NCBI RefSeq assembly: GCF_058153355.1
Contig: NZ_CM177019.1
Length of the DNA stretch: 64,000 bases
Strand: one strand, 5' to 3'
Position 1 is the stretch's first letter; each line of letters begins with the position of its first letter. Made by a program: the position numbers. This document shows, one piece after another, positions 36,001-42,000 of this stretch.

Positions 36001-39000
36001 TATTCGCGGTGACGAGGTGTGGGGCGTATGCCGGATTTACGGGCAGGAAATCATCGATTACATCCAGAAAGCACGGGGGGAGGTATCCACCAGCCCGTCG
36101 GTTGTGTTTTGTGGTGCGTCCGGTGGGGCTGAAGTTCCTGATGTAATGGGCGAGGACAATTTTTTTATTGAGGGTACGCCATTTCTTATCGATCACGTTG
36201 CACTCGTACCGTTGGGCGTATGGGATAAGGATGGGAAACCATCGGGTGTGGAGGTAACAACGCCGACAGCAGAAGAGCAGCTTGCCGGAATGGTCCGGGA
36301 CGTTATTGATGCGGCCTGCAAGCCAGCCCTGGAAAAACTGGAAGAAATATCCGGGCGGCTGGCTCAACTGGAAAAAGAAGGGTGAGTCATAATGCTGATG
36401 AGTAAGGCAGAATATGCCAGACACAAAGGCGTAAGCCGCCAGACAGTTTACGACTGGATCGAGAAAGGCGAAGTGGTCATGTCCGGTAAAAAAATCGATG
36501 TGGAAGCGACAGAGCAGCGGAACAGCCCACCAGCACAGGGAAAAGACACAGTTTCTGAAATGTGGCCAGAGAGAACGCTGGAAATGACGTGGGGCGAGTT
36601 CTGGAAAGCAGTTAAGGCCAGAGACGGTAAAATTCCTGCGCCAGCAACGGACGAGGGCATACAGCAGCGTGTGCTGGATGCAGCCGGGGAATTAGGCTGG
36701 GAAGTGCACTTTCTTGATGATGGTGCTATCTGCCTTGAGGATTGCGACGGGCAGCATTACTTTGAACAATACAATTTGCGAGGTAATGCCAGGCTGGCAA
36801 TTCATATGCTGCGTTGCGAACTCTGCTATGTTGCAGGTGATTATGCCGATGAACTGGAATCATGGAGTGAGGCCGGACTAAACGCCCTGACTGAGTGGGA
36901 AAAATCAGGCCATCAATGACCTCAAAAAGTGTCAAGTTGAGCAGTTTGCCAGGTTGACACTTTACACTCTGAACGCGAAAAAGTGTCAACCTCGCTGTAA
37001 ACCCCGCCGTTACTAGCCTTGCGCCAGATTTACCACGTCAAAAAGCCGAAAAAAACGCGAAAAGTGTCAAGTTGCCATGCTTAGAAATGCCAGGGGAGGT
37101 TAAGTTTTGTTAAGGTTTTTCGCGAAAAAGTGTCAAGTGTGTCAACCTGCGATGTTAAGATTTGTTAAGGTCTTAAGCCGGAAAGTGTCAACCAGCCCCT
37201 AAGATTTCCTAAGGTGTAAATCATGACCATCACCGAAGCCGATATGCTGGAGATGATCCGCAGCATTGCCGGAATCAGCCAGGCTACAGGCACACAGGAG
37301 GCCACGCAGCCGGATACCGTCACCGCCGAAAATTACGCGCGTGTGGTGGCTGAGGTGATGCGCCGTGATGGTATCCAGCTTAATGACACTGATATGTGCG
37401 ACATACGAATCAGGGTTCTTGAATTGCTGTCATGCCGTCGCCGTTCTCAACAACGGAGGGAGAGCGCGAAAAATACTTACCGGTGGAAGAAGCCGGAACG
37501 GTTACGGCGGTAGATTCCTGATATTCAGGAAAACCACGAATCTGGGGGTTTTACTGGCGCGGTGTACACGGTGGAACGCATAGCGTTACCTGACTTATTG
37601 CATTGCAAAAAGTTAGAAAGGCACGGCCTGTGAGATGGGGTGTTGTGACTGACTTAAAGTCAACCGCAAATTCTTTCGTTGTGCTGGCACAGACGGTTAA
37701 ACTGTTGGTAACAGATTAACCCATCGGGGAAGTAAGGTTTATTTCTGGTCCGATGACGAAATTTTGCGACATTTTGCGACAAGTACGCGCGCGCGACGTT
37801 AACGAAATGAGCGCGATGTATTGCACATCTGGTGCAGTGAGTTTTCGGAGTCCATAAAAACCGGTCAAAACTTGTCATGCAAAACGATGCCACCGCAGCT
37901 ATTGATTTGTTCGGCCCCTTCAACTGGTCCCAGAATGGTGGGGATCTGAGATCTGCCCCTGAAAAAGTGCGCAAAAGTGGTACGCAAAAAGAAAAGTGCG
38001 TACCAGCGGAAAGCCCGCCATTACTGGCCTTGTGCAAAAAAGTACGCAGAACATCCACCGGATACGAAACCGATACGTGGAATGCGTACCGCTCCCCCTA
38101 CTAACCCATTTCAACCCGGTAACCAGCAAGCAAACATTACGGTAAGCCAACAGACAAGCCAAACATTAAACCTAAGGCTACCCCTTCGAAGGTGCTTTGA
38201 AGGGGGGATTTAATACAGCATCTTTTTTGTGTGGCTGGTGGTGGGGATTAGCAAATTTTTGATCCTTACTACAGCATTTTTGAGCATCGTTTTTTCATCG
38301 ATTGTATGAGATATTTGGCATAGATAGACGGTAATGAACCGTGGTGAACGTTGATGAACGATGATAAGGAGATGAAACCAATGGCAGTTACTACCCTGAA
38401 CAGTGTGGCGGATTATCTGCTGTGCTTCGCTCAGGAGCACGGCGACGTAATGACGCCGCTTAAACTGCAAAAGATGGTTTTTTATGCTGATGCCTGGTAT
38501 ATGGCCTTAAATGAGGGACAGGAACTGATACCTGACCAGTTTGAGGCTTGGGTACATGGCCCGGTAGCCCGCGAACTGTATAGCCGTTTTGCTGATTACA
38601 AATGGCGACCAATTGATGAAGAAATACAGTGCCCTGAACTATCCGATGAAATTAAAAAACACCTGGATGAAATCTACCAGGTGTTTGGGGGGTACTCAGC
38701 TTATGAACTGGAACAACTGACCCATCAGGAAAAACCCTGGCTGTTAGCGCGTGAAGGTGTGCCGGCAGACGCGCCATGTCGGAATGTTATAGATAAAAAG
38801 GTAACGGCAGAGTTTTATCGTTCTATGGCATCGTGAGTATGGGAAAAGGAAGTATCAGGGCCGGGAAACTGGCCCAAAAGGGTAGCCGTATTACCGCAGG
38901 CGAAAATCATCAGGCTGTAACGACCATTAATTTTTCCTTTCGCTATATCGACGCAGATCATGAAAAATTCAGGTTTGCAGCCGAGGATTCTGCTTATTTT

Positions 39001-42000
39001 TGCAAGGTGCTTGACCGTCTGAAAGCTCTTTCCTCACTGACGGCTAATGAGTTTATGGCTGGGCGCAGTGCCGCCCTGAAATCTCATCCTATCGACTGGC
39101 GACACACATCTGAGCCGGAAGGCTTCACACACCTGAACGAGCAGTTTCAGAGCTATACGCCATATCAATTTGCTGTATCACGCAATGAGCATGGTCGGGT
39201 GCATGGTTTTTTTATCGGTAACGTGTTCCATGTTGTATGGCTGGATCCGCATCACCGGCTTTACCCTGGTAAATAATTTTCATGCTGGTGGTGTAATCAT
39301 CCACCAGCTTGATCACGGATAACAGGGGATGTGTAATCCCCAAGCGAGTGATAAATGTGTATAGAAATGTGTATAGAATCTATTTTAGAACTCGAGAATG
39401 TGCCTTTATTACTGGTCTTGTTGCTTGTTGTATTGTTCCCTTCGCCGCTCCAATTTATCTTCACCTCATCAATCTGCCATTTTTGCTGTATCTGATTTTC
39501 TATATTATCTTAATTCAATTGCTTCAGACTTTTCGCAATCGCTGTAACACTTCCCCATTTTTTTGTAAATAAAAGCGTTTACGCAATGCAATCCATTTGT
39601 AACAACCCAGGTAAAATACCTTATTTTCAAGTTGTTAAATAAGTGGTTATCTACGCTTTTAACAAACGATTGATGGAATCTTTGTAAGCGGCTCGCCAGA
39701 ACCGTATTGATATTTACTGAGAGCTCAGATCAACTTTCCAGGGCAACAGATCGCGTACCCGGTTTGCCGGCCAGTCCTGGATATGTTCAATGACGTAACG
39801 CAGCCACTTTTCTGGCTCCACATTGTTCAGACGGCATGTGCCGATCAGCGAGTACAACACCGCAGCATGTTCACCACCGCTGTCAGAACCCGCGAAGAGC
39901 CAGTTTTTCCGGCCTACGGCCACTCCCCGTAAGGCGTTCTCTGCGATGTTGTTGTCGATTTCCACCCAGCCATTACTGCAGTACACGTTCAGTGCATCCC
40001 ACTGTTTCAGCAGGTATGCGAACGCTTTTGCCGTGTCCGAGTGACGCGACAGTGTTTTCATCTGTTGCTGTATCCAGTCATACAGTGACTGCATCAGTGG
40101 CGCGGCTCTGGCTTTTCTTGCCGCCAGACGCTGTTCTGCTGAACAGCCCCGGACCTCTGCCTCGATGGCATACAGTTCACCGATACGCTGCAGGGCTTCC
40201 GTGGTGATGTCGGTGGGCACTCTTGCATGCACATCGTGGATTTTTCTCCGGGCATGAGCCATACATGCGGCTTCCGTTATTCTGCCGGATTCGTACAACG
40301 CCCGGTAACCACCGTAAGCATCGGCCTGAAGCACTCCGCTGTAACCGGCCAGATGATTCTGTGGATGGATACCTTTCCGGTCCGGGCTGTACGCGAACCA
40401 GACCGCCGGAGGCATTTCCGAACCGGCGTTACGGTCATCACGAACGTAGACCCACAGCCGGGCAGTCCTTGTTTTACCGCTGCCCGGCTCCTGGACCGGA
40501 ACGGGGATATCATCGGCATGGACTTTACCGGGCATCAGCACATACTGGCGCAGGATGTCATACAGCGGTTCCAGCAGTTCAGCAACAGCACCTGTCCAGC
40601 GCCCCAGTGTGGCACGGCTCAGCTCCACGCCCTGACGACGGTATATTTCTGACTGGCGGTATAACGGCAGATGGTCTGCATATTTTCCAGCGACAACATG
40701 GGCCAGAAGCCCCGCTCCGGCATAACTGCGTGCAATGGGTTTTGAAGGCACCGGAGCCTGCACGATATGGTCGCACCGGCAACAGGCCAGTTTCGGACGT
40801 TGTGTTTCGATAACCTTAAAGGCGCTGCTGATAAGCTCCAGTTGCTCTGACACATCACATCCCAGAGAACTGAGTTCGCCACCACAGGCCGGGCAGCATT
40901 CCTCTTCCGGACGGATGACCCGGGTTTCACGGGGAAGTGAGGCAGGTAACGGTTTACGGGCTGAAGACTGGCGCAGGGGAGATGGCAGTACCGGGTCATA
41001 TTGCTCACCCAGCGTTTCCGCCATTTCTTCCTGAAGAGCGCTGATTCGCTCCTGTGCTTCCTGTATCTGCCGTTCGGTTTTTGCACGAAGTTTTTCTGAG
41101 CTTTTACCGAACTGCATGCGCTGCAGTTTTGCAACCAGCGCCTTCAGCCGGTTGATTTCGGAAGCATAAGCCGCCACCCGCTGTGAGAGCAGGCGGTTGT
41201 ATTTCGCCATCTGGCGGATGGTGTCCTGTTGCGTCTGCAACAGTGCCCGCAGGCGGGCATTCTCATGAGCAAGTGAGGTGTCCATATCCTCACTTTACAA
41301 CGGGTTATATGCGGATGCCAGCGCGTTCCGTTCGTTTCGGGTGTTTCCAGTCGATGCCCTCAAGAAGCATGGATAACTGGGCCGGAGTAAGGTGCACCTT
41401 GCCGTCACGGGTGACCGGCCAGACGAAGCGGCCCCGCTCCAGGCGTCTGGTGAAGAGGCACAGTCCGTCACTGTCAGCCCACAACACTTTTATCTGGTCA
41501 CCCCGGCGTCCGCGGAAGATGAACAGATGCCCGGAGAACGGGTCATCCTTCAGGACGTTCTGAACTTTTGAGGCCAGGCCGTTAAAGCCATTTCGCATAT
41601 CGGTGATACCTGCAACCAGCCAGATACGCGAACCTGCAGGGAGAGATATCACCGTCTCAGCTCCTGTATAAGCAAGGACAGCAGATTTTCATTCACTGCC
41701 CCGTTCAACCGAAGGGTGCCGTTTCTGAACGTAATCTCACAGGAGATGCTGTGTATTTCCGGTGTTACTGACGGTCTTGCGGTCAGTGGCTCATTAGCCG
41801 GAGCAGTTGGGAGTTGGGCATCAATAGTGACAGGAATTAACTGAGATTCTCTGCCTGATTCTGATGATGGCAATTTTATCTTCCCCTGCCGCCATTTCTG
41901 ACGCCATTTGAACAACAGATTGGCATTAATACCATTGTCCAGGGCCAGTCTGGAAATTGAAACACCTGGCTGGAATGATGCTTCTATGAGTCGTTGTTTG

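Follow-up and report, generated by a model that had tools for sequence, protein, structure and literature searches.

What does a small protein do whose gene overlaps the end of a Panacea-domain gene at the edge of a satellite-like island? The question is raised by a locus in a stretch of 64,000 nucleotides of contig NZ_CM177019.1 (RefSeq assembly GCF_058153355.1), called the window here, in which two genes at 38351-39276 had been put forward from the sequence as a candidate toxin-antitoxin (TA) or anti-phage module. The answer that we consider moderately probable is that they form a PanA-PanT (PanAT) module of the published type T1, in which the partner would be a RelE/HigB-like endoribonuclease neutralised by PanA, and that they are carried as exchangeable cargo before the right attachment site (attR) of the island. 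The two genes are as follows.

38381-38836, plus strand: panA, stand-alone Panacea (DUF4065) protein of 151 aa; the longest reading frame begins at TTG 38351
38833-39276 (GTG start, 147 aa) or 38839-39276 (ATG start, 145 aa), plus strand: panT-like partner with a predicted RelE/HigB-like core

The gene pair and its relatives

Both open reading frames (ORFs), 38351-38836 and 38833-39276, are present on the same, plus strand, and the LKLQKMVFYADAWYMALNEGQELIPDQFEAWVHGPV stretch quoted in the original prediction lies within the first. Its Panacea/DUF4065 identity was borne out by a match to Pfam PF13274 (SocA_Panacea; E=6.4e-20, residues 39-130, model positions 1-112 of 113) and by one to phrog_1281 (E=1.5e-37), and the product contains the Panacea domain with no extra N-terminal domain. 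A scan of PanA with PADLOC-DB v2 gave 0 matches. ATG 38381 is preferred as the start because AAGGAG is found at 38366-38371, 9 nt ahead of it, and because the RefSeq call for the orthologous 151-aa Panacea protein of E. coli strain numer 3 has the equivalent start; TTG 38351 is likely to be merely the start of the longest ORF. The second gene opens within the stop of the first, as had been noted, with GTG 38833 in a GTGA that overlaps the TGA of panA. This is its RefSeq start (147 aa), and the majority of database homologues are of 145 aa and begin at the equivalent of ATG 38839. Because of these two candidate starts, the genes are separated by either a 4-nt overlap or a 2-nt gap, and with either start they are translationally coupled.

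Evidence that the two genes act as one unit was sought in other genomes. One genome per species was scanned with the C-terminal motif of the partner alone, by which 141 loci were confirmed; 80 of these were fetched. Together with earlier loci, the fetched set provided 88 loci with a partner-like ORF across cyanobacteria, gamma- and delta-proteobacteria; two of them end at the edge of the DNA, leaving 86 that could be evaluated. A Panacea ORF was observed directly upstream on the same strand in all 88 (86 of 86 evaluable), and the same gene order was found in independent gene calls from Nostoc, Pseudomonas, Klebsiella, Proteus/Providencia and Yersinia. Reciprocity, a criterion for PanAT, was thereby found as well, the loci having been retrieved through the partner motif only and all carrying panA. 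In parallel, the pairwise distances of PanA and of the partner over 52 non-identical pairs were strongly correlated (Mantel r=0.954; none of 2000 permutations reached this value), with similar mean divergence (0.43 for PanA and 0.45 for the partner). A correlation of this size means that partners are not swapped within the subfamily. Chance adjacency of panA and panT was considered and is ruled out by the complete co-occurrence together with the Mantel value of 0.95.

Where the pair decays, it does so on one side. The partner ORF was broken with panA intact at 9 loci, and panA was broken with the partner intact at 0. Since the loci had been found through the C-terminus of the partner, this asymmetry is a conservative estimate, and it fits the pattern expected of a partner that does harm when PanA is missing. 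Purifying selection acts on both genes, with dN/dS (ratio of nonsynonymous to synonymous substitution rates) of about 0.08-0.10 for panA, and dN=0.17 with saturated dS for panT compared with its copy in E. coli A34, so that gene 2 proves to be a real, selected gene. The expectation that the two genes would be co-conserved has thus held, and module identity and co-function of panA and panT are well supported.

The partner had been said to match no recognised family. This stood for Pfam domains; an exhaustive profile search, however, recovered a family of 1,417 representative clusters (50% identity level) at E<=1e-3, 848 of them at E<=1e-10. A word-indexed search had given 99 related clusters from Enterobacterales, Pseudomonas, Aeromonas, many cyanobacteria and Longimicrobium, every one of them annotated 'hypothetical', and fragments of 61 and 89 aa are widespread among enteric genomes. 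Profile libraries gave partial matches: phrog_8366 over residues 28-145 (E=2.6e-7), NCBIfam NF046006 (MAG6450_fam) over residues 84-143 (E=2e-6, 28.2 bits, under the cut-off of 40 bits) and, as the sole and weak match in PADLOC, NsnC over 42 residues (E=0.0096, 13.5 bits). NCBIfam gave no RelE/ParE match. A profile search of PDB sequences returned beta-secretase only (E about 0.04 over 32 residues), which was judged a chance match. Taken by sequence, the partner is a member of a very large, uncharacterised family. The MAG6450 family, from Mollicutes, matches its putatively catalytic C-terminal half, and cluster T1 also has Mollicutes members in the part of the published table examined; MAG6450 and PHROG 8366 are themselves families of unknown function.

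The link to T1 comes from the survey in which partners of Panacea proteins were sorted into 88 clusters (Kurata et al. 2022, PMC8832971). In the part of its table examined, T1 has the most rows of any PanT cluster (at least 217 'pT1') and draws on cyanobacteria and Mollicutes as well as on a Klebsiella pair (gap of -4), the pair of E. coli MOD1 and that of Salmonella phage Emek, and among the rows examined the order of T1 pairs is always antitoxin then toxin (PMC8832971). The Emek protein YP_006560566.1 is listed there as T1 with the prediction 'mRNase' (PMC8832971). Among 50,697 phage records, tblastn with the partner gave no match at E<=1e-3, and for this reason profile comparison was needed to reach Emek: hhalign aligned the family profile to YP_006560566.1 over residues 28-145, the whole core, at 96.2% probability and E=2e-9, and pairwise BLASTP gave E=2e-6 with about 25% identity. 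Among the closest known systems, the T1 pair Emek YP_006560565.1/YP_006560566.1 resembles that of the window in having a stand-alone Panacea gene first and then an overlapping or abutting gene for a partner of 140-160 aa. Both partners share the FSF..Y N-terminal strand, the 'LS.LT' helix and the C-terminal 'F.V.WLD....LY', both are predicted mRNases, and both are found at accessory positions of phages or prophages. They differ at residues that the window's subfamily keeps without exception: as aligned by hhalign, Emek has a His opposite H85 and retains the terminal Tyr, whereas Q112, R122, H124 and H141 are substituted.

Other agreements with T1 were observed. A Foldseek search of AFDB50 returned a protein of 138 aa from Nitrolancea hollandica Lb, which is also the species that heads the T1 rows in the part of the table examined, and the modal overlaps of the cyanobacterial loci, -20 and -17, equal the gaps of cyanobacterial T1 pairs in that part. 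Direct listing was not found: none of the accessions searched is present in the NetFlax supplements, no species name is common to the loci collected here and the part of Dataset S1 examined, no fetched protein is near-identical to that of any named T1 genome, and E. coli MOD1 WP_077635758.1 did not occur among the E. coli copies inspected. Nor did a literature search find a later paper characterising the partner family. The pair appears to belong to T1-type PanAT by homology rather than by accession-level listing and, since its partner is homologous to a T1 member, it is of an already catalogued type and brings in no new partner.

SocAB of Caulobacter crescentus, a type VI TA system, has an antitoxin with the same Panacea domain as PanA. 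SocB inhibits replication by binding DnaN, and SocA serves as a ClpXP adaptor. PanA matches the NCBIfam SocA_antitoxin model at E=3.5e-17 and 62.7 bits, against an equivalog cut-off of 190 bits that is not reached, and its gene order contrasts with that of SocAB, being antitoxin then toxin in every evaluable locus. In the survey of Kurata et al. 2022 (PMC8832971), SocB falls in a cluster apart from T1, namely T10. A SocAB-like mechanism is not suggested for the window pair.

Fold, candidate active site and competing functions

A structure-based search against toxin folds had been proposed for the partner. The AlphaFold2 model built from the family alignment has a mean predicted local distance difference test score (pLDDT) of 85.3, with the core from residue 30 mostly above 90; the N-terminal tail ahead of it, about 30 aa long, is basic and disordered. 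The modelled core has a RelE-type alpha/beta fold, as in the RelE/ParE superfamily, and the top Foldseek matches were to P. vulgaris HigB (probability 0.91, E=0.07). Because this placement comes from fold comparison, the partner is best described as a predicted, divergent RelE/HigB-fold protein. It has no significant sequence or profile similarity to HigB, RelE, YoeB or YafQ and, unlike them, carries the extra N-terminal tail. Its antitoxin is also of another kind, a globular Panacea protein, whereas theirs are of the RelB, HigA or YefM type and include a domain that binds DNA.

In the family alignment H85, Q112, G121, R122, H124, G125, F132, H141 and Y144 are invariant and W136-L-D138 is near-invariant; H85, Q112, R122, H124, D138, H141 and Y144 are conserved in 51 or 52 of the 52 paired loci. 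The sole stretch that aligned with P. vulgaris HigB is the family 'LRxHPI', opposite the 'KLHPLK' motif that contains the catalytic His54 of that toxin; the alignment is non-significant and serves as a hint only. From these residues we infer a candidate active site of H85, R122, H124, H141 and Y144, in which H141 and Y144 at the C-terminus would be comparable to the Asp-Tyr-His of HigB or the His-Tyr of YoeB. The partner would be a RelE/HigB-type endoribonuclease, most likely acting by ribosome-dependent mRNA cleavage. PanA would bind and neutralise it directly, as has been reported for other stand-alone Panacea antitoxins (PMC10440598). Release or activation of the nuclease would lead to translation arrest, with either island stabilisation (addiction) or abortive phage infection as the outcome.

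The proposal of a TA module found indirect support in the strict co-occurrence, the co-divergence and the partner-only decay, and it is weakened by a published finding. Over-expression in E. coli led to a score of 'not toxic' for the T1 proteins of Emek and of E. coli MOD1, the latter likewise predicted to be an 'mRNase' (PMC8832971 Table S1). Other results also weigh against a neutralised endoribonuclease. A Pfam scan of the partner found nothing even at E<=10, the sequence profiles of the RelE/ParE superfamily (Pfam, NCBIfam, PDB sequences) gave no match, and hhalign of the family profile with single HigB and YoeB sequences was not significant. The active site was assigned from the order of residues and from an alignment that did not reach significance, and coordinates played no part in it. 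AlphaFold2 of the fused chain PanA-(GGGGS)6-PanT with a paired alignment gave a predicted template modelling score (pTM) of 0.56 and no usable interface information, with a small rise in pLDDT at the PanT N-terminus. Finally, a sigma-70 promoter scan upstream of panA returned 0 sites, and PADLOC is without a model for the panA-panT pair.

The non-toxic scores would be expected if the partner were a RelE-fold protein that is inert or weak alone and becomes active only on the detection by PanA of a cue, for instance a phage protein. It would then serve abortive infection, or the satellite would use it to interfere with helper or competitor phages, and its simple over-expression would be non-toxic. 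This main rival, which we hold to be unlikely, agrees with the published T1 tests (PMC8832971), with the proposal of the NetFlax authors that Panacea is a sensor domain (PMC10440598), with the recurrence of the pair at prophage and satellite termini beside TA and restriction cargo, and with the weak similarity between the partner and the C-terminal end of NsnC, a Menshen defence protein. The count of 9 broken partners to 0 broken panA genes fits instead a protein that is harmful without PanA, and a defence phenotype is known for no member. In addition, the non-toxicity of Emek may not extend to the window's subfamily, because the Emek protein is without Q112, R122, H124 and H141.

Two further functions are less likely. 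The same negative toxicity tests (PMC8832971) would be expected of a non-toxin accessory, for example an RNA- or ribosome-binding regulator that acts with PanA and has nothing to do with growth arrest; the equal rates of PanA and partner also agree with it, as antitoxins evolve faster in some TA pairs. The modelled toxin fold, the confinement of decay to the partner gene and the company of TA and defence cargo on mobile elements speak against such a role, and we consider it improbable. A gyrase poison of ParE type, or another non-nuclease member of the RelE/ParE fold, is given very little credence. We therefore retain the T1-type module with a PanA-neutralised endoribonuclease as the preferred reading, with the sensor-controlled effector as its chief competitor.

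The island, its cargo slot and other carriers

The surroundings of the pair are best explained as a P4/PICI-like (phage-inducible chromosomal island) satellite integrated at tRNA-Gly(ccc), with these features.

20707-20780: tRNA-Gly(ccc), left end of the island
20906-22309: P4-type integrase gene (phrog_1, E=3e-79)
38185-38209, plus strand: conserved GC hairpin CCCCTTCGAAGGTGCTTTGAAGGGG, left border of the cargo slot
38210-39292: variable cargo slot, occupied by panA-panT
39280-39312, plus strand: stable hairpin, beginning 4 nt past the panT stop
39436-39453, plus strand: attR-like imperfect repeat of the tRNA-Gly 3' end, TTCCCTTCG-CCGCTCCAA, right end of the island

From left to right the island contains the integrase gene, a gene for a DUF4222 protein, a primase gene, a gene for single-stranded DNA-binding protein (SSB), ProQ/FinO- and PerC-like genes, a DUF2213 protease-like gene and a small-terminase-like gene. 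The att-proximal position claimed for the pair was confirmed, the attR-like repeat beginning 160 bp past the stop of gene 2. Compared with the tRNA 3' end at 20763-20781, the repeat matches at 18 of 19 positions with one indel; searches for attachment sites with exact repeats and then with up to 3 mismatches were negative, and it was seen only when an indel was allowed. The hairpin behind panT consists of two inverted Chi octamers GCTGGTGG, at 39284-39291 (plus strand) and 39301-39308 (minus strand). It folds at -19 kcal/mol (z=-4.6; none of 200 shuffles reached this stability) and is possibly a transcript end or stabiliser; a U-run is absent. An Rfam scan of 37400-39750 found nothing. An ORF at 37660-38058 on the minus strand was considered as a gene, gave no PHROG match and was treated as probably non-coding.

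Islands 90-96% identical to this one are common in E. coli, and the panA-panT pair was found in only 3 of 5,426 complete genomes, in agreement with the suggestion that the cargo varies between related islands. The cassette is mobile between satellites and prophages. A 96% identical cassette, with a nucleotide-identical panT, lies in a different island of E. coli numer 3 and adjoins yejO; in E. coli A34 a 76% identical cassette is found in the lysis region of a lambdoid prophage. Relatives in other enterics are placed after prophage tail genes. Those of Proteus adjoin Phd/Doc and HipA modules, a Yersinia pair terminates a primase/terminase satellite, not far from a type I restriction system, and a Pseudomonas pair abuts a type I restriction-modification system. 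Such placement is typical of accessory or defence cargo, yet it is not evidence for a defence function.

Several details of these copies were observed. Between the window (38381-39327) and numer 3, panA has dS=0.31, and no relation is seen in its first 9 codons or in the region upstream; the cassette is mosaic, which implies a recombination breakpoint within the 5' end of panA. The panT of A34 (NZ_CP028741.1, about 10468-10900 of the stretch examined) is an intact ORF that is unannotated in RefSeq, and in it Y replaces the otherwise invariant H85. The closest phage homologue of PanA (43% identity) is that of Cylindrospermopsis phage Cr-LKS4 (OQ625504.1, 1816-3383 of the stretch), where it stands alone between two annotated CRISPR arrays, with no adjacent panT-like gene annotated.

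The island itself is marked by transposable elements. Its primase gene is seemingly split by an insertion of the IS110 family (29149-30189, 30248-31423, 32108-32833; a 391-aa transposase is encoded at 30248-31423), and for that reason this satellite copy may be replication-defective. An element of the IS66 family is present in two inverted copies, 26075-28438 on the plus strand and 39714-42077 on the minus strand, each with tnpA, tnpB and a gene for a 523-aa transposase. The first copy lies inside the island. The second, with its IS66 end at about 39684, lies about 230 bp past attR, before a GH15 gene (42162-43772), and the two copies enclose that part of the island which holds the replication, packaging and PanAT genes. 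The translation of a 539-aa ORF at 24357-25976 looks odd and of low complexity, and both strands of this ORF contain several Chi sites; it does not resemble a normal protein gene and may be RNA-encoding or non-coding sequence.

Meaning for the T1 family

The T1/partner family is large, with about 1,400 clusters, yet it has no member with demonstrated activity, and both tested members were negative. If tests of toxicity, RNA cleavage and action on phages or satellites were negative for the window pair too, it would be ordinary accessory cargo. Handles on the family have been gained in the predicted RelE/HigB-like fold, in a conserved His/Arg/His/His/Tyr set that has no full counterpart in the tested Emek protein, and in a clean, E. 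coli-compatible copy within a defined cargo slot of a satellite island. A more speculative view, to which we assign a low probability, is that the His/Arg-bearing branch of T1, including the window gene, is a latent RelE-fold RNase under the control of a Panacea sensor, used by satellites and prophages as a conditional weapon for abortive infection or helper interference. If true, this would explain why T1 proteins were scored as non-toxic, the tested members being without the catalytic set or without the trigger.

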